A stretch of DNA of 63,976 bases, filler included, from Basidioascus undulatus (lineage: Eukaryota), in NCBI GenBank assembly GCA_000826855.1. It is 3 parts of 3 records of this genome, joined end to end, with 100 filler letters (N's around TTAATTAATTAA, not from the genome) between each part and the next. Parts side by side here need not be neighbours in the genome. Positions count along the whole stretch, not along the records: positions 43,631 to 63,976 come from JTLS01000375.1; 2 more parts are not named here. One strand, given 5' to 3'. Shown one piece after another: positions 17,701 to 51,060 of this stretch; within the stretch, counting starts at the first letter, position 1; each line of letters begins with the position of its first letter. The notes beneath the pieces were generated by a model. It was not told the origin of the DNA and ran no database searches. It worked only from the letters and a program-made list of their open reading frames with translations. The translations under genes were made by a program, and so were the position numbers.

Positions 17701-20558
17701 CATCTCGGTCAGCGACCACGTCGTCGAGGCGATCATGCCCTACACCCCAAAAAGCCAGGCATCAGCGACCGCATACTTGGAAAGAATATCGAGAGGGAGG
17801 GGGAGGAGGATGGTCCGCACCTTGGCGTTGTCGGACGACAGGTCGCAGATGAGGCGCCCGGTCAAGATGAGCTTGTTCCGCCCGAACTTCGTCCGCGGCC
17901 ACTTGTCGCGGCGGACGCGGCCGATGCGCGACCAGTTGGAGATCTTGTGGTCCGCCATGCGCGTGAGGATCACGTCGAGCGTGTCGCCGAGGAGGTCGTG
18001 CCCGATGATCACGTCCGGGTCGTGCTTCTGGACGATGGCTGGCGGGAACCAAACACGCACGTAAGCGCAGCACGGTCATGAGGAAAGGGCCTTGGGGAAA
18101 AGGAAGGAAGGGGAGAGACGAAGACGAACCGAGGAGGTTGCTGAGCAGGTTCTTCTCGTTCCGCGCAGGTTCGATCTTGCTCCGCTCCTGGCGGGCCTTC
18201 ATCTCAAACCCGGGTGGGAACATCCCGAGGGGTCTGACGACCGTGTGGCTGCTCGACGGCTGCTTCTCGGGCGGTGTTGGGTCCTCAAGGTTGACTGTAA
18301 GATAGCCCAGCGATTGTTCAGATGAGGTCCAGTTTGCGTCTCTCTCCCTAACTCGGCAGGCTCACCGTCCGTCCACGTCCGCGCAGTCGCACAGACGACC
18401 TCGCGGTTGTTGTTCTGGTGGTTGACGATCGATCGCGCCGAGAGGGACATGATCGTGAGCGGCGGGGCGTCCTTCGGCGCCTCCGCGTCTGTCTCGGCGA
18501 AGGGGTTGACGTTCTTGGGTTCGCGAACGATGAACTGGTGTTTGCACCACGTGCTCTGCATGCATGAAGCCAAGTCAGCAGCGTGCCCCCGGAACCAAGG
18601 GAAGAGGATGAGGATGGGATAGGAGGGTGAAAGAACTTACGCCCTTGAGATGCACGTCCGCCTCTTCGATCTTGAGCCAGCAGGGGCCCATGATCTTGCG
18701 CTTGAGGACGAGGAGCTCGAACGGCGAGGTGTTGGTCCCGAAGACGAGCGAGAACGTCTTGCCCGACGCGCCGAGAGGGATCTGGGGTTCTGTTGGTCCT
18801 CCGCGTGTCTCTGAGTCAGTATTGCATTTCTGGAGAGGTGAAACAGCAGGAAGTGGAAGCAAGGAGAAGGCGACGGACGATCAAACGAGTAGACGACCTT
18901 GAGCCACTCGGACTCGCCCTGCGGGACGCCCTTCTCCTCGAACGCGTACTTGCGGTTCACGAACTTTGCGGCCCACGTCTTGATCTTTGCCTTCTGGCGG
19001 AGGCCGTCGAACTCGGCGTGGATCTCTCCGCGCTCGGGCGGCTCGGATGTCTCGTTGCCGGAGTCGTCTGCAATCACACATCGACATCAGCATTGCACTC
19101 CCAAGGCGGGTGGGGGAAAGAAAGAGTAAACGCACCGAGCGCATACGGCCTGGGAAGGACGAACAGGTTCCGCTCGATGCCGTCGACGGTGACGCTCGCG
19201 CTCGTCCACTTCTTGCGCTCGGGGTCGAAGACCTTGCCAAACAAGATGACCTTTCCCGCGTCCTCGAGGTAGTCGAACCAGTAAAGGTGGACGGACCCGT
19301 CGTCCTGATAGATGGGCGAGTCGGTCGGGCTGCCCGCGCGCTCGTACGGCGTCGCAGCCTCCGCGGCCTTGGGGGACAGGGATGGGGACGCCTGGAGGGA
19401 CTCGTGGATCGCGAGCCAGGCGCGCGGGGGCTCGGCCTTTGGCTTGGTCGGGGAGGGTGCGGCGGAGGGAAGGGCGAGGGAGAGGCCTGCGTTCCCGGGG
19501 GGCGGAGGGGACTCCTTCTTGACTGCCGGCGGGGGGGCGGGCTTGACGGCTTTGGAGGAGACGGCGTTGACACGCGGGCGCGGTCCGGTCGTCGCGGCCC
19601 TCAGCGGCGCGCGGACACTGAACCCGTCGGCCTCGTCCTCCGCGTCCTCCTCCTCCTTCTTGACCGGCTCGTCCATCGTCATCGCGTCGCCGAAATCAAA
19701 CTCGAGCCCGCCGTCCGAGATCGGCTCGTCGGCAGCGCGCACCGTCGCCTCGCTTAGGCGCAGCTTCTTGGCCGGGCTCGAGAGCGCGCCGAGGTCGAGT
19801 TTCCTGCGCGCGCGGCTCGCAAAGCTGTCGTCCGAGCTCGGGTGCTCGGGCGGGTCCGAGGACAGCCCCGTACTGTACCCGCTCCCGGACGCGGACGCCG
19901 CAGAGCGGTACGACCTGTACGACGACGTCGGCGGCTTCTTGATGGTGGGGGGCGCGGCGGGCGCGGAGGGGTCGTCGAGGTTGGAGAGGAGCGAGGAGAG
20001 AAAGTCGTCTGCCTTTTCGGACGAGACTTCTTTGCGGTACGGGTTGACGCTCGGCGCAGCGGCAGCGGCGGCGGCGGGCTTGCTGGCGGAGCGCGCAAAG
20101 TACGCTCCGAGCGACTCGGACGCCTTGACCTTTGTCTTTGCGGACTTCTTGGACTTGCGGCGTTTGGGCTGGTCTGTGGGAGGGGGGTGTTCAGACGCGT
20201 CGCCCCTCCGCGAACCCAAGGGGAAGAAAGCGCACCCTGGTCCTCCTCGCTGTTCTCCTGCTCAACCTCGTTGTCCCAGTCGTCCATGCCGTTGTCGACG
20301 TAGCCCGAGCCATCGTCGTCCTCGATAAAGTCGTCGCGGGCAAGGCGGCCCTTGACGATGTTCTTGTACTTGTCCTCGTCGACGACGTCAAAGATGTCCT
20401 CCTCCTCAGTGGCCTGCGGGGTGGGTGTGTGACTAAAGAATGGATGGATTGGATTGAGAAGGGACGGGGACGGGGACGGCGGGCACCTTCCACTGCTTTG
20501 CGCGACCGCCCTGGGCGCGTGCGGCGCGGAGCTGGGCGAGGCGGTCCTTGGAGCTCAT
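14714..20558 (-). CDS. POL1: DNA polymerase alpha catalytic subunit
   Basis: N-terminal [119 protein letters not shown]-terminal Cys clusters; stop TAG at 14714-14716. Confidence 0.97.
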
Positions 20559-21720: not shown

Positions 21721-21820
21721 NNNNNNNNNNNNNNNNNNNNNNNNNNNNNNNNNNNNNNNNNNNNTTAATTAATTAANNNNNNNNNNNNNNNNNNNNNNNN
21801 NNNNNNNNNNNNNNNNNNNN
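21721..21820. other. Artificial contig linker (N44-TTAATTAATTAA-N44)
   Basis: N runs flanking a six-frame stop spacer; identical to the one at 43531-43630. Confidence 0.97.
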
Positions 21821-25667: not shown

Positions 25668-26765
25668 TCAAGTGAACCCCCTCACGCCGAGCACGCGCCG
25701 GACGTCGGTCGTGAAGCGGAGCGAGTCGAGGAAGGGGAGAAGGTCGAGGAGCGCCTCGTCCGAGGGGTCCGAGATCCAGCCGGGGATGGGGATGCCGTTG
25801 GCTGGGTGAAAAGTAAGGAAGGTGCAAGCCAGTGTCAGGCGAGAGCGAAGGACAGGGGAGAGAAGGAGGGCGGGAGACGAACCAGGATTGATAGAGTACG
25901 AGGCGGGCGAGTTGTCGATGAGCGCGACGCGCGAGAGGTCTGAGTCGACCACGTCGAGGTCTTTCATGTACGAGCCGTTAGGGGATTGGGTGCATGACTG
26001 GGCAGAGAAAAACGCAAGAATGTGAGATCTGGTCGAGTCGGGTGGGGTGGGGGGGGGGGGAGGAAGATCGGGACTCACTTCTCGGAAGAGCCGCCGCGTG
26101 AGGATCCCCCGCCCGGCGTCAAGCCAGTCGATCACGGGGTCCGCGTACTCTTGCATCGACGCGGTGAAGATGACGAGGGTGTACCAGGAGGCGACCTTCA
26201 GAGAGATAAGGCATAAAAGTCAGGAAGGGAGAGGAGGTGAGTGAATGGATGGGGCTGGAGACGCACCTTCTTCAAAAAGAAGTCGACATGCGGGCGCTTA
26301 TAGACATGGTAAAGCACGCTCCTCCCCTCCAACACGACCTCGACCATGTGCGCGCTCCCGCCTCCTACGCCGCCCCCGCCAAACCCGAGGCTGAGCAGCC
26401 CGCTGCCCCCGCCCGTGCCGGACGGCGGGCGGGACGTAGAGTGGATGAGCGTCTCGTCGAGGTCGAGCACGAGCGTCTTGGGGAGGTGCAGCCCCGTTAT
26501 GGGCGCGGGTATTCGCGCCTTGGGGGGCGGCGTGCGCCGCCCGGACGCGGATGAGCCGGGCGCGGCAAGGAGGTGGTTCGAGCCGTAGATCGGGCTGGGG
26601 AGGAGGGAGGAGGACGCGGGAGGTTTGGGACGGCGAGCGACGGAAGGGGAGGAGGATAAGGAGGGGATGATCGGTTTGAGGTGACGCGTGGGAGGGGAAC
26701 GGGGCGCGGGTTGCGGTGGGCCGGGGTATGGAGGAGGGGGCGTGTCGGGCGAGTCGACAGACGTG
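25668..26765 (-). CDS. NEM1: NIF/FCP1-like HAD phosphatase, Nem1/CTDNEP1 type; 5' part missing
   Basis: [111 protein letters not shown]. Confidence 0.88.
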
Positions 26766-29700
26766 CGGAGCAGCGCGTCCAGTCGCTCCGCCTCGCGAGC
26801 CTGCTGCTTCTGCTTCTCGACCCCGCCGCTTTCGCCGACCACCTCCAGTCCGCCGAGCCGGGCACCTCCCTCCCCGACGTCTTCATGTCCGTCCTCTTCG
26901 CGTCGAACGCCTTTAGCCCGCACACCCACGCGCGCGCCCTGGAGGAGTACACGCGCCTCGTTCTCAACGAGCTCCCCCCGCACGAGCGCCCGCACAACCT
27001 CCTCGACCCGCCCCTGTACGACACGCTCGCGGACCATGCGACGGACGTTGTCGCGCGCCATGTGCGCATGGAGGTGGACCCCGCTTCGGGCGCGCAGAAG
27101 AAGGACGAGTACGAGAAGCGCGTCAAGACCGAGTGGCTGCGGTTCGCGAGCCTCATCGGCGAGCTCAACGCGCGCGCGCAGTACCCCCTGCACCTCGCAC
27201 TCACCGACCGCGACGCGCTCGTCGTCCAGGCCGAGGCGATCTCCGCCCCCGTCGCGGAAGACCCAACGCAGCTGCTCCACCGCCTGGCGTCCGCCGACCC
27301 GGCTACGCGCGACGCGTTCCTCGACGCCGCGCCCGTGGCCGTCGAGCCGTACGCGCCCGCGCTGGCGCCGCAAGACCGGCGCGCGGCAGTGGTCAACGTC
27401 CTCGGGCTTGCGCAAGCGCTCGTCGGCGCGCTGCCTCTTGACAGACTGCGCGCGCTCGAGGACGCCGTGCAGGCTGTCGCGCGCGGGGAGATGACGGGCG
27501 CGAAGGAGGACGTCCTGCGTCAAGTGTGGAACGAGAAGGGCGCGCCTGTCGTCCCTCCCGCGGTGAGGGAGCAGGTGGCCGGCGCACTCGCGAACGCGCA
27601 GGACCTCGAGCCCTCCGTCGAGGCGGCGCTAGAAGTCCTCGCATCCTCGAGCGTCCTCCCCGGCGCAGGTGGCGGCGGAGCCGACTCCGCGCCCTCCGAC
27701 CTCGGCAACACGCTCATCGCCTCGCACCTCGCCTCGGCGTTCCACGACCGCTACGCCCTCGCGCGGAACGTGCTCTTCCTCGTGTGCTTTGCGCACACGC
27801 TCGACCGCCTCGCCGCGCCCGCCAGGACGCTCAACACGGCCCTCGCCGTCGCGCACACGGCCAGCCTCCTGCGGTGGCTTGCCCAGCGCGGGGCGGCGGA
27901 CGAGCCGGTGGAGGACGAGGACCAAACAGAGGACGAGAACGACGGCCTTGCTGACCGACTCGGCTCTCTCCGCGTCTCTGGCGGCGGCGGCGACTCCGCC
28001 GCCCGCCTCCCTACGACGTCGCTCCTGCACGCGCTCCTGCGGACGCACCAGTTCGGGGTCTCCCTCCCCGCGCAGGCGCCCTCCCCACTCGCGCTCGCAC
28101 AGGCCGCATCGGCGTTTTTGGGCGCGACGGGCGCGCTCGAGCAGCCCACGCTGGCGGCGCGCCCGGTCGACACCCGCCTCGCGTTCGCGCTGTACCGCTT
28201 TAGGTGGGGCACGCTCGCGAGCGAGTTGTGCCGCGCGTTCTGGAAAGGCGGGGTCGGCGTCGCGTATGTGAGGGGCCGCGCGGGGGTCGATGCGGGCCGG
28301 TGGGACGAGGCGAGGGAGGAGCTTGAGAAGGCTGCTGTGGGCGTTGGTGCGTTTCTGTCTCTCCCCCTTGCTATCACCGATACTGTCCCGGGGAGCTGAC
28401 ATCAATCCCGGTAGTCTCCAACGACCCCTCCCTCCGCGAGATCCTCCCCGCGGACGTGGACTCCCTCTCGGCATACTACGCGCACGTCGCGGCCGTGTTT
28501 GACCACGCGGGCGTCGACGCGCATGTCGCGCACTTTGCGCAGCTCGCGATCGACGAGAAGCCGCGCGGCGAGGAGGCCGGCGACGACGCGCGGGAGCTGT
28601 GGTTCAAGGTCTTCCGCGCGCAGGCGGCGCGAGGCAAGTACGAGGACGCGTACGCCGCGCTGATGGGCATGCCGTTTGAGGACCTGTGCGTGCTGTTTTT
28701 CTACTTTCTCTTGGCCTATCACCTTATCCCTTCGTTCGTCGGCTGAAGCAAAGTTCGTCACCGGTTGCAGGAAGCGCGAATCCCTCCGCCACCTCATCTC
28801 GGTCATGTGCGAGTCGGGCGACGTCGCGCGCCTGACGCAGTTCAGCTTTGTCGGGCTCCAACCCGAGGTTGAGCGCACACTCGCCTTCAAGGCGCGTAAC
28901 TCGGACCCGCTCGCGCGGCCAAACTATTACGAGGTCCTGCACGCTTACCATGTCTTCCGTGGCGACTTCCGGAGCGGTACGCGGTGTTCAGCCTCCCTTC
29001 TTATTAATTTTAGGAGTTCGCTGACGTGCCGGGTGGTCGATACGACAGCGGGCGCGATCATGTACCAGCAGGGACGGCGCCTGGCGGAAGTCCAATGTCG
29101 GCCTGGGGAGTTCGGGGACATTGCGACGCTCCAGGCGCAGAGTTACCTCGCTGCGATCAACGCGCTTGCGCTCGTCGAAAAGCAGCACGCTTGGGTCGCA
29201 CTGCCCGTTGCGCCCGAGGCCGCTCTGCGAGTGCGTTCCACGCTATTCTGACTTGCTCGACCGCGAGAACGCGCAGAGAGCTGACAGTGGGTTGGTGGCT
29301 ATGAACAGACACGCAAGCGCCGCAAGTTGACTGTGCACCTGCCCGAGTCCGAGTTCGCTCCCGAGACGAAGGACCTCGAGGTCGTGAAGCTCGACGACAT
29401 GCGGCGCGAGTACACGCTCGTCCTCGCCCGGCTCCAGCTCTCCCAGCACTTCCCCGAGCTCGCCTCGTCCAGTGCGTCGTTCGCATCCCGTCCCTCCCTC
29501 ATCCGACTAGACTCGGCTAACGGCACGCCGCCGCTCGCTGTGTAGATCTCTCCCTGGCAGCTGAGGACGTCGTCGCGCTCTTTGTTCAGCGCGGGCTGTT
29601 CGGCCTCGCCATCTCGTCAGCGCGCACGCTCGACGTCGACATGACTGGGCTTTTCGCGTCTCTGACGATGCGGTGCGTGCAGCTCTCGAAGTTGGGCGAC

Positions 29701-43530: not shown

Positions 43531-43630
43531 NNNNNNNNNNNNNNNNNNNNNNNNNNNNNNNNNNNNNNNNNNNNTTAATTAATTAANNNNNNNNNNNNNN
43601 NNNNNNNNNNNNNNNNNNNNNNNNNNNNNN
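43531..43630. other. Artificial contig linker
   Basis: N44-TTAATTAATTAA-N44. Confidence 0.97.
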
Positions 43631-44305: not shown

Positions 44306-45842
44306 CGCCCCACTTCCCGCAGTTAAGGGCTCCCATTAACAGCGCCGCCGGCAAGCCTGAATCACAATGCTTGAGCTGCCATTGTCACACGGACTTGGTA
44401 TACTGGTGGACACTATTACAGATTACAGATGTATTAACCGACTTCGCCGAGTACAAAGCTCGGCTTAGGTCTGCGCGGTGGCAAGGACCACTCTGAGCCC
44501 GCCTGCCTGCGGCCCTCCTCCAGCCAAAAACACCTCCCCATACGCCCCTACCCCTGCCCCCACAGAGAGCCTTCGGCCCGTGAACGAGTGCGTGAGGTCA
44601 GGCGGTCGGGGGACGTACCTCCGCTTGTCGTTCCTCTGCCTGTCGTACTTTAAAAGCTGCTTTTTGGTGGGTGCCCCAGATCTATGCAGCAGAGAGCCCT
44701 TGTAGTGTGCGGAGCGGGAAGCCCGGAATATATAGGATCTTCGGGACTAACCGGAGGTAGTATACGCTCCGGCCCAACGGCCACACCGGGCCATCTTGGA
44801 ACAGCGAAACTGCCATGGCCTGCATCGTGTGTACCTTGTCCGGGGGATGTCTGCTTGCTCGAGAAGCGAGCGGGTCATACGTTGGATATCATCACTTGCT
44901 TTTTCCCTAATCGCGCTGTAGTGCCCACATTCCACAAAGACATGATGCTCGTCTTCGACCTCGCCGCAGTGTGGGGCTCGTCTTCAGGCCGCAGGCGGTC
45001 TGCTTCCCACGGTCTAGTTGCCAGTGATCCTGTGCGCGCTTGTAACTGGACCTGGACCTGAGCCGTGTATGCACTGACTGTTCTAGTGTACAGGTATTCT
45101 GGCGGGGCAGTACTGTCGTATAGGCTTGCGTTGACGCGGGACAGGGTTTTTGGCGGGAGGCTGTCTTGCTGCCGAATGGTCATGCAGTGCTGTGTCTAGT
45201 CTTTTATGTTCAACTCAACAAAACCGTCGCGGTCGTGGTAGGGAGTGTATGCGTCCATGTGGAAAGTTGCCCAGGGGACCATCAGAGTGGTGGGCGTGCG
45301 GGCCTGCTTTGCTGCCTGGTCCGCTGCGGCTGCTGCGAGTGCCGGCTCCCCTGTGCGCCTTCTCATGTTGCAGACTTACATGAGGATACCGCTCAGTTAG
45401 ACTTTTCAGCCAACGGTAGAAACTCCGTCTGTAGAGTGTGCCCCAAGTGTACGACAGGAATCCGTGGTCGCTAGCCTCCGCTAAGATGCGGCATGTGTTG
45501 AGTGATCCGTGTGCAGGATGGTGGTGGCGTACCGCTGTGGATTCCTGGCGAGCGGCCGCGTTGAGGCCTCTTCAAGGAGCTGCGAGGGGTACACGTGAAC
45601 GAGTGAGGTGGCAAAGTGGCGCAAGGCTCACTAGAAGGTGCTTTTCAACTCTAGCGAGGTGACTGGCACTGCGCTGTCATAAAGCACGGGATAGTAGATT
45701 AGAGGGGCTCTGACTGACTCAACAGAGTGCGTCAGCCTGTTTGGAGGTGTCCATATTTTGCTTTGCAGTGGTTGAGTAAATGTGAACCTGTGGTTCAAAA
45801 ATAATTTACTGATGTCCGGTCTAATAGCCGGATGGCAGCGAA

Positions 45843-45922
45843 ATGGTGAGGTCGGTTGTTCAATCCAGCCAGGGGGCATCTCAATTGCCCCTTTAGCTCA
45901 GTGGTAGAGCGCGCCACTCGTA
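45843..45922 (+). tRNA. Circularly permuted tRNA-Thr(CGT): 3' half 45843-45878 precedes 5' half 45887-45922
   Basis: Reassembled cloverleaf: acceptor GCCCCTT/AGGGGGC+A73, D arm GCTC-AGTGGTA-GAGC, anticodon stem CGCCA/TGGTG with loop CT-CGT-A|A, variable loop AGGTC, T arm GGTTG-TTCAATC-CAGCC. The break is at the canonical 37/38 position. Confidence 0.9.
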
Positions 45923-45927
45923 CTGTC

Positions 45928-45932
45928 TTTTT
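45928..45932 (+). terminator. Pol III oligo(dT) terminator of the permuted tRNA
   Basis: TTTTT 5 nt after position 37 of the 5' half. Confidence 0.75.
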
Positions 45933-47188
45933 ACTTGTTTTGCAGCCTTCTTTGCTGCTCCTGTAGGTCCAGGCCAGGGTTCTCATTTCCATAATCGAGC
46001 TTCGGGCATGAAGCGTTGATCTATTCAAACTGGCGGGTTGACCGTGATCTTGCGTTGGATTCTTCTGCAAGATAGAAGCTGCGATGGAGTTAAACAAGTT
46101 AATACGTCGGAATGAACAGTCTCCACAGATGCGACAGGTAATCCGAACACATGGGAGTTTTCATCTCATTCCTGCTCTCAAACGACAGAGTGTGTCTGTC
46201 TTGTGTCCACCGAGCTCCTGGGATTCCCTCACGATCATCCTTTTCGACTTCCCGGAAATCATAAATATTGGGTTGCATGCACATGTAGTCTGTATTCAGT
46301 GTGCCCCTATAGGGGGGCAATGTCGTTGCCAGGCTCAACTGCCCTTGAGGCCAGCACCGAAGCTGTTTCCACTAGCGGTTGTAAAGATGGCCGCCTTCCT
46401 TTCCTCCTACATGCAATCCGGACCTTTGACCTGGAACATTCCACGTATTTCCCGATTGATGAACAACCTTCGTGATTGCCTCGTTTCCACAGCTTCAGAC
46501 CGGACTTGCCCGTCCCGATGCGGGCTGGGGCCGCTTCAGTCCGAGTCTCTCTTCCTCCTCGCACAACCTGCCAACCAGCCAGTGAACTTTTGTTGTCGAC
46601 AGTCTTGGTATCAGCTCCAGCGCTCTCCTTTTCGTGCACAAGCGTTCGACATGTGCAGTCTGCTCAAGGTTGCCCTCCCTAAGATATGCGCAGGTAGCTT
46701 AAGCCTGCGATGGATCCTCCTGTCCGAGGTCCAAGTTGGAGTGTTACACCTGCTGTTTGAACGTGCTCAAAGATCCAATGAGTAAACGGCATGCATAGAC
46801 CCTACATTGGATTCCCCTCACGACACAGTGTGTCTGCCGAGCTTCCGTGGTTCACGCCATCACGACCGCCTACTGCACATGCCGCGTGATCTCAATGCAT
46901 TGTACAGACAGAGGTGGTGGTTGCGCAGGACGGTGACCTCAGAAAGAGATGTGAGCAGAAAATACGTGAAAAAGGAAACGGAGAGAAAACATAGGCCCTG
47001 GCCGATATCAAGAGCTTAGGCGCGGGTGGGTGACAGGGAACGGCCGTCGAGATCAGAACAGAGAGCAGGCAAGACCCAGCATGCGCGCGCGCTTGTGGTT
47101 GTTGAGAAAGAGAAAAAGAAAAGGTATTCATAGGCGTGAGAGGAGAAGAAGGAGGAGAGTGTGTTTGAGATTGTGAGATTTTAGACTC

Positions 47189-48689: not shown

Positions 48690-49109
48690 TATGGGCGCTG
48701 CTGTTGGTCGGAGCTTTGTCCCTCCGAAGGACTGAGAGTGCAGCTGGCGGCGAGTGTGCTGGGCGAAGGGGTCGCGACAGGCAGGCGAGGGCAAGCTCGA
48801 AGAAAGAAGCAAGGCGAGTCGCACAGGTCAGCAGCTTTTTTCATGAATCTTGCTCGCCCCGGCTTTCCGCCTCCGCCGTCCGCGAACCTTCGCTGCCAGT
48901 CTGCGCCTGCCTGCCTGCCTTTCTTCCCTTGCCTTCATGCTAGAATTCAATTCAAGGGAATTTATTGCAGCAGAATAATGCAGAATGAAATCATCCAAGA
49001 AGCAAAAAGAAGTGGCTTCCTGACAAGACGGTGGACACTCATGAACAGCCGCCAGCCTGCCCTCGAGCGGGCCTCGGATTCAAGTCCGAGCAAAATTAAC
49101 CAAAAGAAA

Positions 49110-49183
49110 TGGCCACTGCAGGGGTCGAACCTGCGACTTTGGAGTTATTAGCTCCACACTCTAACCAACTGAGTTAAGCGGCC
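49110..49183 (-). tRNA. tRNA-Ile(AAT), intronless
   Basis: GGCCGCTTAACTCAGTTGGTTAGAGTGTGGAGCT-AAT-AACTCCAAAGTCGCAGGTTCGACCCCTGCAGTGGCCA folds to a standard cloverleaf, followed by TTTCTTTT. Confidence 0.95.
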
Positions 49184-50299
49184 AACATAAGAACAATTGA
49201 ATTGAAAATCCATCTTGTGCAGCCATCAAGGGCTTCACGCAGTCCAGTCGGACCCACCAGTTCAGGTGCAGTGACAAGATGAAATGCTCTATTGAGAGTC
49301 TCAATACTAAGATAATCACCTAAAGAACGAATAAAGGTGTTCAGAAAGGAGGTCTGGAGCTGACAGTCAACCAACTCACTGCCTCGCTTTCGTCGGTAAG
49401 CACTGCAGCCTATAGCTTGAAGGTAGACAGAATTTACAACCATACTATTTAACTTAGAGGTGGACCGGTGCTTGGCCGTAGACCGGCCCCGCTTTACTAC
49501 ACATGTGTTGAAACTGCGGTGTGTATGGCTGTGGCAGATTGCGCCAGACTGGGCTGGCAGGAGGAAGCAAAAGTTATTGATCGGCACGGTTTTAATTGAC
49601 TGGAATCCCTTTTGAACATACAGTTCAGAGCTAAATGTGGCAAACTCGGATAAGCACTCTGTGGCATGAACGACCGTTGAGGACTTGGAACGCTGGCAGT
49701 CTTTGGATCGCTTTGTTCAGCGGCGGGGAGCTAAAATACAAATGTCCCATTTTTGGAGAAGAAAAGTCTTCGTAAAGTGTTTGGGAAGTGCGCGAGCTCC
49801 GAGTGAACGAGTGAGGTGGAACGCACAACTCGCATTAGCAGGCGAGTGCATGCATTTAAACCGTGAATGGGTGTGGCTGCTGTCACTCTCTTACAAGCTG
49901 CTCTCCTCTGACCAGGCGTAGTCTTTGGAAATCTAATATTCTCTTCTGGGTAAACATCTCCCGAAGCAGTCAATCAGATTGTTCGTGAAGTCGAGGTTGC
50001 TCCTGCTCGCTGGAGGCGGAAACACAGTCTGCCTGGCTAACGACGCATCTCGTTGATAATGCTGATTCTGAGGAGAGCGGTTCCAAGTTTGATTACCAGT
50101 TTTTGAAGGTAGTTTAAGGTAAATGTTGTTTTTTTGGGAGCGAAACGAAAAGACGGGGTCAAGCTGCTGAAGTACGGGACCGGCCGGCCCTAAAGCAGCC
50201 ATCCGCGGTAGGGCCCTGGAGACCGTCCCGGTCTTCTCCCTTCCCCCCGCACCCTCCATCACTCCTCCTCCCTAGTTTATTCCACCCGCGTCGCTCACC

Positions 50300-51060
50300 A
50301 TGTCAGCGCCCGCTGTTATCCCGACCGCAAGATCGGTTCTGTCCTCCGTTCGCTCTCCGGTGATCCGCCGCTTCTTCGAGCGCGAGTCGCAGCGCTGGAC
50401 CCCGAAGCCGGCCGGGCGCTTCACTCGCAACCCCGAGGGTTCCGTAATCCACCTGCTCGACCCCTCCGTCTCCCCGACCTCCGCCGGCCCCTTCCCGAAC
50501 CCCTTCGTCACGCACCGACACCCGCACACGCAGCGCATCATCCGGCCGTTCTACTCGTTGCGGGAGCAGGCGGACCTCGTGAAGGCTGCGCAGGAGGAGG
50601 GCGTGCTCGGCCTACTCCCGCCGGGGAAGAAGAGCGGGTCGCTGGAGGAACTGGAGGGCGAGGCGCGCGCGAAGGGCGTCTTGAGGGAGATGATCTGGGT
50701 TGGGGGGGAGGAGGGCCCCGGAGCGAAGAGGCCGTTGAACCAGAGGAGGGGCAAGGAGTTCAAAGGCAAGAAGAGCGAGCGGGAGCGCCCGGCGAAGCTC
50801 AAGCTCAGGAAGGAGCGCATGGACGGGATGGAGAAGCGCATTGAGGAATGGAAGAAGGTGAGTTGGATTGTATCTCGTCGGTGTCTGCGTTGCCAGGGCG
50901 GTTTGAAGGACAGGCAATGCTGTGTCTTTCTTGAGTCGTGGCGTGCAGACACAGGCGATTGCAGCACGTCTTTGGGGAACAAAGGCTGATCATTTCGTGC
51001 TGCATCCCACAGGCGAAGGCGGCCGAGAAGGCAAAGATCAAGGCGACGTTGCCATTCTGA
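50300..51060 (+). CDS. MRPL25: Mitochondrial ribosomal protein mL59 (MRPL25)
   Basis: PNPF..PFYSLREQADLVKAA..LLPPGKK..FKGKKSERE..MDGMEKRIEEWKK|AKAAEKAKIKATLPF*. Confidence 0.85.

Follow-up and report, generated by a model that had tools for sequence, protein, structure and literature searches.

This study focused on a tRNA gene whose two halves stand in reversed order, found in a 63,976-nt stretch of the genome of the fungus Basidioascus undulatus (assembly GCA_000826855.1), which in its entirety is referred to below as the window. Read from the sequence of the + strand, the locus consists of the 3' half of a tRNA-Thr(CGT) gene, a linker, the 5' half of the same gene, a trailer, and a run of five T residues (T5), and it lies 2.2 kb inside its contig. 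Together with the sequences just upstream, these elements are as follows, with the basis of each assignment in brackets (MFE, minimum free energy).

45797-45808, + strand: AT-rich, TATA-like stretch AAAAATAATTTA, 35-46 nt 5' of the 3' half (sequence)
45814-45833, + strand: leader hairpin with a 7-bp stem and a 6-nt loop (MFE fold)
45834-45842, + strand: leader segment GGCAGCGAA, ending at the predicted 3' splice site 45842/45843 (folds, pair counts)
45843-45878, + strand: tRNA-Thr 3' half, positions 38-73, 36 nt (sequence, ARAGORN on the joined halves, covariance model)
45879-45886, + strand: linker TCTCAATT, the 8-nt intervening sequence, which closes the acceptor stem as a loop (sequence, folds, covariance model)
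45887-45922, + strand: tRNA-Thr 5' half, positions 1-37, 36 nt (sequence, ARAGORN on the joined halves, covariance model)
45923-45927, + strand: trailer CTGTC, starting at the predicted 5' splice site 45922/45923 (folds, pair counts)
45928-45932, + strand: T5 run, the presumed RNA polymerase III (Pol III) terminator (sequence)

The 3' half carries the 3' strand of the anticodon stem, the variable loop, the T arm (with the B box inside it, at about 45857-45867), the 3' strand of the acceptor stem, and the discriminator A. The 5' half supplies the 5' strand of the acceptor stem, the D arm, the 5' strand of the anticodon stem, and the loop residues up to A37, with the A box at 45894-45904 and the anticodon CGT at 45919-45921. 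When the halves were joined by script in the normal order, ARAGORN reported a tRNA-Thr(cgt) of 72 nt with every stem fully paired (acceptor 7/7, D 4/4, anticodon 5/5, T 5/5). The two halves meet at 37/38, the 5' half ending with A37 (45922) and the 3' half beginning with A38 (45843), and the joined ends restore a 7-nt anticodon loop with T33, the anticodon CGT, and A37/A38 at the break. A preliminary description of this DNA, made from the sequence alone, had given the coordinates and letters of both halves, the 8-nt spacer, CTGTC, and T5, and had stated that the acceptor and anticodon stems pair across the halves; all of this was reproduced, in the sequence itself and by ARAGORN on the rearranged sequence. 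Its placing of the break, which corresponds to the type II permuted topology, is borne out by the joined cloverleaf, the predicted fold, and a full-length covariance model match.

On sequence evidence, the locus is probably (at odds of roughly two in three) a functional nuclear tRNA-Thr(CGU) gene of the type II (37/38) permuted kind, and it would belong to a small gene family in this fungus.

Detection by tRNA scanners and covariance models

Neither ARAGORN nor Rfam at gathering score made a call at the permuted locus in the native window, and the only tRNA gene they reported was tRNA-Ile(aat), at 49109-49184 on the - strand. The locus is therefore invisible to routine annotation, as the preliminary description had predicted of standard scanners. 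When the halves were submitted singly, the 5' half matched the Rfam tRNA model (RF00005) over positions 1-36 with 19.9 bits (E 0.011; gathering score 29), the match being cut at its 3' end. The 3' half gave no RF00005 match at E values up to 10, its sole Rfam match being to Plastid-ycf2, at 11.3 bits on the opposite strand. A blastn-short search of all 63,976 bases found no further match of more than 12 nt to either half, which agrees with the earlier statement that there is no second 5' half upstream and no second 3' half downstream.

Two approaches that allow for the reversed order did detect the gene. ARAGORN was run on doubled 170-nt tiles, in 40-nt steps on both strands, and in the window a tRNA spanning the joint of a doubled tile appeared at the permuted locus only; it was labelled Ser(cga), ARAGORN having misplaced an artificial 90-nt intron. 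A covariance model (R1), trained on 26 distinct permuted tRNA-Cys(GCA) genes of environmental origin and on no window sequence, matched 45843-45923 along its full length (model positions 1-80 of 80), with 64.2 bits (E 4.4e-16) and with no non-standard pair flagged. The runner-up match of R1 in the window, made up of the 3' part of the tRNA-Ile gene and sequence downstream of it, reached 16.2 bits. Because of the doubled-tile scan and the covariance model match, chance is rejected as an explanation, and the presence of a permuted cloverleaf at this locus is far beyond coincidence.

Predicted fold and maturation

The MFE structure was the permuted cloverleaf in both of the transcripts that were modelled (107 and 133 nt). 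In the 133-nt fold, the leader forms pairs through GGCAG with CUGUC of the trailer and through CGA with U33-C34-G35; the 5' cut site is marked by a bulge of U36-A37, and C32 faces the small internal loop that contains the 3' cut site. In the 107-nt fold, the pairs that the leader forms with trailer and anticodon are shifted slightly in register. An alternative pairing, of C32 with G(-3), would make a 3-nt bulge of A(-2), A(-1), and A38. The anticodon-intron (A-I) pair joins position 32 to intron position -3. At the permuted locus C32 is complementary to G(-3), and in the 133-nt MFE fold both predicted cut sites are unpaired and adjoin helices, which is the eukaryote-type splice-site context (unpaired cut sites beside helices) used as a criterion in PMC4090602.

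A maturation pathway can be proposed from the gene anatomy and the fold. Pol III would transcribe the locus from leader to trailer as one RNA of ~100-120 nt ending in T5, and this RNA would fold to a cloverleaf in which the linker closes the acceptor stem, and in which the anticodon stem is lengthened as the leader pairs with the anticodon loop and with the trailer. The tRNA splicing endonuclease (Sen), measuring from the tRNA body, would cut between leader and A38 and between A37 and trailer, after which tRNA ligase would join A37 to A38. RNase P and tRNase Z would remove the 8-nt linker, and CCA would be added. Were ligation to come first, the intermediate would be a circle of 80 nt, as in algae, where a circular intermediate has been shown for permuted tRNAs (as reviewed in PMC3978253). 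Were the ends to be processed first, which is the usual order in yeast, the product would be a nicked, two-piece, base-paired tRNA that would then be spliced in trans.

Copies in two public read sets

The locus was compared with contigs of two public read sets from two studies, X1 (2025) and X2 (2014), with word shares of 0.96 and 0.95, respectively, either of which may itself be the source of the assembly. The upstream flank was present exactly in a 3,694-nt contig of X1 (45400-45863) and in a 2,240-nt contig of X2 (45400-45862); since these contigs show no differences, the leader enters the 3' half from unique sequence, without a preceding 5' half. The downstream flank was likewise exact in a 3,221-nt contig of X1 (45903-46300) and a 1,353-nt contig of X2 (45927-46300), and the first of these means that the 5' half continues through CTGTC and T5 into unique DNA. 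Within the tRNA itself, the contigs of X1 and X2 are interrupted, which is normal for a repeated sequence.

An 88-nt contig of X2, at ~2.5 times single-copy depth, covers 45839-45922 and has 40 and 36 letters on the two sides of the linker. It differs from the window by four extra letters and two substitutions in or beside the linker, as well as two substitutions in the acceptor stem. With its variant linker, it thus represents the permuted arrangement in a second version. Two 60-nt contigs of X1 (45850-45909) also cross the linker of the window, with 29 and 23 flanking letters and two to three differences. At least three other upstream contexts were found, joining the window sequence at 45814, 45833, and 45840. 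A 977-nt paralogous contig, seen in both runs, is similar to the window from 45814 onward, which is exactly the start of the leader hairpin. There were at least five other downstream contexts, four leaving the window sequence at 45922, 45926, 45927, and 45939, and the fifth being a 447-nt contig that follows it to 45942.

The leaders, halves, and terminators of these copies show a consistent pattern. GAA precedes position 38 in all four leaders, and a run of four to five T residues begins at most 10 nt after position 37 in every readable downstream context (n=5, the T-run of the 447-nt contig being deduced from the depth of a 39-nt contig). The 39-nt contig, at ~3 times single-copy depth, is exact over 45897-45932 and thus represents ~3 identical copies. 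Past T5 the copies diverge: a 16-kb contig has three differences by 45939 and the 447-nt contig four by 45942, so that the identity of the ~3 copies appears to end just behind the terminator. Among the X1 and X2 contigs there was no joint leading from 45922 back to 45843 (5' half to 3' half), and so no conventional copy of similar sequence was seen. Conserved halves, a freely varying linker and flanks, and a fixed terminator are the pattern of a working gene family, and one that is hard to reconcile with a single accidental relic.

The demand for such a family was considered from codon usage. In three stop-to-stop open reading frames of the window (those of mL59, a nucleoporin, and 19074-20258 on the - strand), ACG was the commonest Thr codon (29 of 51, a small sample), which would accord with several Thr(CGU) genes being needed.

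Environmental permuted tRNA genes

Comparators were sought in a metagenome collection using a generic pattern in which a T-loop was followed, after 19-49 nt, by a common D arm, then by an anticodon loop and, within 10 nt, by T5. This returned 44 loci (L001-L044), of which 31 showed strict permuted pairing (acceptor 7/7, T-stem 5/5, and anticodon stem 5/5), representing 26 distinct sequences; the 13 loci that failed the pairing test are left out of the comparator set. The Cys(GCA) set serves as a positive control because type II permuted Cys(GCA) genes are known from Ostreococcus and Micromonas (PMC3978253, Table 1). Linkers of the comparators range from 5 to 28 nt, with a median of 8 (n=31), the fungal linker being 8 nt; their trailers are of 0-10 nt, a range bounded by the search pattern (n=31), and that of the fungal gene is 5 nt. 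A figure of 100% paired among the 26 is circular, the sequences having been selected for perfect pairing, and information comes only from the variety of pair types. In this respect, changes on both sides were seen in all seven acceptor pairs of the metagenome Cys(GCA) genes. The diversity of this set (26 distinct sequences) greatly exceeds that of the 2014 review PMC3978253, which tabulates three Cys(GCA) genes.

Three of the loci outside the strict set, L007, L011, and L034, have the anticodon-loop letters TTCCCAG, and all three fail the fixed-geometry test of the anticodon stem. Pairing in permuted order is good in L007 and L011 (acceptor 6-7/7, T-stem 5/5) and poor in L034 (acceptor 4/7, T-stem 4/5, anticodon stem 0/5). 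These loci may be tandem genes, or permuted genes whose geometry differs.

Points of doubt

A number of observations weigh against the view that the Thr(CGT) locus is a functional permuted gene. The stability of its fold is unremarkable, with a z value of -1.07 for the 107-nt transcript (30 of 200 shuffles were as stable) and -2.30 for the 133-nt transcript (2 of 200). In the 88-nt variant, the substitutions G>A (45873) and T>C (45892) produce a C5.A68 mismatch and a C6-G67 pair and do not compensate each other. The preliminary description had asked for the locus to be confirmed in reads, and this succeeded in part: both flanks are exact in the X1 and X2 contigs, whereas the linker join of the window itself was bridged by no contig of either set under a rule of at least 31 letters on each side. 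A Thr-specific junction pattern found no contigs in the metagenome collection, and hence no ortholog from other species, while the anticodon of the strict comparators was GCA (Cys) in 31 of 31, and Thr in none.

The junction also departs from the canonical bulge-helix-bulge (BHB) motif. Its central helix (positions 32-35 with leader positions -3 to -6) has two of four pairs, whereas all four are formed in 22 of 30 environmental comparators (L040, with too short a leader, is left out of this count). In a register shifted by one nucleotide there are 3/3 and 5/5 pairs, with a 2-nt bulge (U36, A37). On these models, the non-BHB junction would fit a eukaryotic endonuclease of the ruler type rather than one that recognises a BHB.

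The paralogous context that joins at 45840 holds the motif TCGTA 27 nt before position 38, and a conventional Thr(CGT) gene interrupted by a 27-nt intron could have its 5' half end there. The upstream part of that contig did not align to the 5' half, and the likelihood of TCGTA occurring by chance in one of the seven distinct 30-letter consensus sequences is ~1 in 6. By eye, TGATG, CTAAT, and GAA occur in the same order in the leader of the window and in this context, a pattern compatible with an origin of the leader from an intron's 3' part.

The remaining doubts concern the promoter. Fungi depend on TFIIIC, and at the permuted locus the B box lies upstream of the A box. Such an order is described as unsuitable for TFIIIC binding in PMC3978253. 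Judged from its sequence, the AT-rich stretch at 45797-45808 may serve as an upstream element of a Pol III promoter, but this role is doubtful; the stretch is not seen in the 30-letter upstream consensus of three paralogous contigs. Within the leader, a motif at 45825-45835 resembles an A box, agreeing with the consensus at seven of nine specified positions, a likeness that was noticed post hoc. Further upstream, A-box-like CAGTGGTTGAG and B-box-like GGTTCAAAAAT sequences stand ~30 nt apart at 45756-45802, just before the permuted gene. No tRNA was called at 45756-45802, and its likeness to the 5' half was not significant; it could be a decayed tRNA or a relic of a Pol III promoter.

Alternative explanations

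The best of the alternatives, though an unlikely one, is that the locus is a non-functional relic: tandem intron-containing tRNA-Thr(CGT) genes would have lost their outer halves, the resulting pseudogene would have been segmentally duplicated, and conventional genes would supply the tRNA. Tandem duplication with loss of outer segments is the origin model published for permuted genes (PMC3978253), yet a Smith-Waterman search of the flanks found no significant remnant of decayed outer halves, equal scores being reached by 7.8% and 15.9% of 628 random tiles. The context with TCGTA 27 nt ahead of position 38 might stem from a conventional copy with an intron, and the three leader motifs it has in common with the window add to this; no contig, however, contains a conventional joint of 5' half to 3' half. 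The uncompensated acceptor change of the 88-nt variant also favours a relic, but in the window none of the 21 stem pairs is broken and the conserved nucleotides of the loops are all present. Finally, the unclear promoter arrangement speaks for a relic, and against it stand the retention of the halves while linker and flanks vary, the T-run at most 10 nt from position 37 in the downstream contexts shown, and the loss of identity between the ~3 copies after T5.

Distinctly less probable is a non-decoding RNA, either a tRNA-like Pol III RNA with paired ends, in the manner of YrlA, or a 5' tRNA-half transcribed from the downstream A box. A permissive Rfam scan of 45700-46000 gave two weak matches, one to a snoRNA at chance level and the other to YrlA (RF02553) at 45825-45932, with 21.8 bits (E 0.02). 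The latter is the only Rfam family of note in native order, a module with the same topology of T arm, closed acceptor stem, and D arm, and with its RNA ends paired in a stem; it is a bacterial family, however, the score is far under its gathering score of 69, and the weak match is a side effect of the permuted tRNA-like topology that both have in common. YrlA is not known to have a complete anticodon loop such as is restored here, and a Y-like stem would have no need of the perfect 7-nt anticodon loop that is recreated at the break. The stem formed by the RNA ends is, moreover, not conserved in the trailers of the paralogs, one copy diverging directly after A37. As to the second form, the position of the A box downstream of the B box means that a start near the linker could yield the 5' half plus trailer, but such a product leaves unexplained why a conserved 3' half precedes the 5' half in several copies.

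An assembly artefact, in which a repeat induced the misjoining of ordinary tRNA copies in a fragmented short-read assembly, is very improbable, for although the window consists of contigs joined by N44-TTAATTAATTAA-N44 linkers, the de Bruijn contigs of both runs break inside the tRNA, and the bridging rule is not reached at the window's linker, the locus is 2.2 kb from its contig end, the X1 and X2 contigs reproduce both flanks without a difference from unique sequence into each half, and the 88-nt contig bridges 3' half, linker, and 5' half in that order.

Relationship to known systems

Permuted tRNA genes are a known kind of gene, and it is their occurrence in the fungal kingdom that was previously unreported in the literature searched. 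No fungal permuted tRNA gene was found in the titles and abstracts of that full-text literature, subscription journals being outside its scope. The 2014 review (PMC3978253) tabulates 34 permuted genes, in Cyanidioschyzon merolae, four prasinophytes, the Bigelowiella natans nucleomorph, and Thermofilum pendens, and the same lineages are named in the relevant parts of PMC4033280, the tRNAscan-SE 2.0 paper (PMC8450103), and a review of August 2026 (PMC13578239). To the extent that these sources cover the subject, they agree with the preliminary description, which knew of algal, nucleomorph, and Thermofilum genes and of no fungal case. In the passages concerned, reviews treat permuted tRNA genes as an oddity of 'early-branching' algae and archaea.

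The type II genes of the prasinophytes Ostreococcus and Micromonas and of the B. natans nucleomorph (Maruyama et al. 2010, as tabulated in PMC3978253) resemble the fungal locus in their order on one strand, short linker, and break at 37/38, in a short trailer followed by a T-run, and in a leader complementary to the anticodon loop; published linkers of permuted genes are of 1-74 bp (Table 1 of the same review). It is also a model of 26 environmental genes of this type that scores the fungal locus at 64.2 bits. The differences are that the hosts are algal rather than fungal, that the green-algal isotypes listed in Table 1 are Ser, Leu, Cys, Arg, Asn, and iMet, as against Thr(CGT) here, and that the environmental genes of this type mostly have the 4-bp BHB central helix that is incomplete in the fungus. 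A fungal host would, unlike the algal systems, provide a TFIIIC-dependent Pol III and a yeast-type Sen complex and ligase.

The same isoacceptor, Thr(CGT), is encoded together with Thr(AGT) by type II genes of C. merolae (Soma et al. 2007; PMC3978253, Table 1), likewise with a 37/38 junction and without an intron, and for genes of this alga maturation via a circular intermediate was shown experimentally (PMC3978253). The linkers of the two C. merolae Thr genes are 31 and 24 bp, compared with 8 nt in the fungus, and according to the same review this alga has no recognisable TFC1 or TFC3 and uses an upstream TATA-like element. The distance between the lineages is the ground on which an independent origin of the fungal gene is assumed. 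Fungi, by contrast to C. merolae, have TFIIIC. The permuted tRNA-iMet and tRNA-Tyr genes of T. pendens (Chan et al. 2011; PMC3978253, Table 1) also have the 3' half first and very short linkers (7 and 1 nt), but they are archaeal, with a 59/60 junction (type IV), a gene-encoded CCA, and the archaeal BHB endonuclease. Tandem or dimeric intron-containing tRNA genes, which are the proposed precursors (PMC3978253, section 10), similarly present a 3' half, a few nucleotides, and a 5' half of the same tRNA, and the leader and trailer of the fungal gene behave like the two ends of a 37/38 intron. Here, however, there is no outer half within the 64-kb window, and a terminator stands 5 nt after position 37.

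A wider proposal can be made tentatively, and with the balance of judgement tipped slightly against it as a whole. Much or all of the tRNA-Thr(CGU) of this fungus, the tRNA for its commonest Thr codon, would come from the permuted family, which would have arisen independently of the algal genes by tandem duplication of an intron-containing gene. It would imply processing without a BHB in an opisthokont, an unconventional Pol III promoter, and an occurrence in Opisthokonta that may have been overlooked in other fungi, such genes being invisible to standard scanners. For its promoter, this proposal looks to a possible combination of the 3' half's B box with an A-box-like remnant at 45825-45835 in the leader.

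Genomic context

The window consists of at least three contigs separated by runs at 21721-21820 and 43531-43630, each made up of 44 N, TTAATTAATTAA, and 44 N, which are linkers with stops in six frames. The contig with the permuted locus (43631-63976) also encodes the mitochondrial ribosomal protein mL59, at 50276-50986 on the + strand (Pfam Mitoc_mL59, 1.8e-32), the nearest Atlas clusters of which are from Ascomycota and Basidiomycota. This gene supports a fungal host for the contig, as far as can be judged from sequence, and is in line with the fungal origin given in the preliminary description. The same contig carries the tRNA-Ile(aat) gene mentioned above, which is conventional and intron-less (Rfam, 65.1 bits) and is followed by TTTCTTTT instead of T5, and because of this, short T-runs may suffice as terminators in this fungus. 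The other contigs contain exons of a Nup120/160-type nucleoporin (26660-28396, + strand) and a NIF/FCP1-like phosphatase (26198-27625, - strand). An Atlas query with the nucleoporin exon gave no pointer to the phylum.

Significance

If the Thr(CGT) locus is indeed a functional permuted gene, it would extend permuted tRNA genes to Opisthokonta, and would mean that a ruler-type Sen endonuclease and a yeast-type ligase can mature a permuted precursor. It would also raise the question of how Pol III reads a gene with the B box before the A box in a TFIIIC-dependent lineage. Where fungal tRNA inventories rely on standard scanners, gene counts may be too low and isoacceptors may be listed as missing in error. 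Lastly, the origin of permuted genes would become open to study in a genetically tractable kingdom, and with a gene whose leader and trailer still resemble the ends of an intron.

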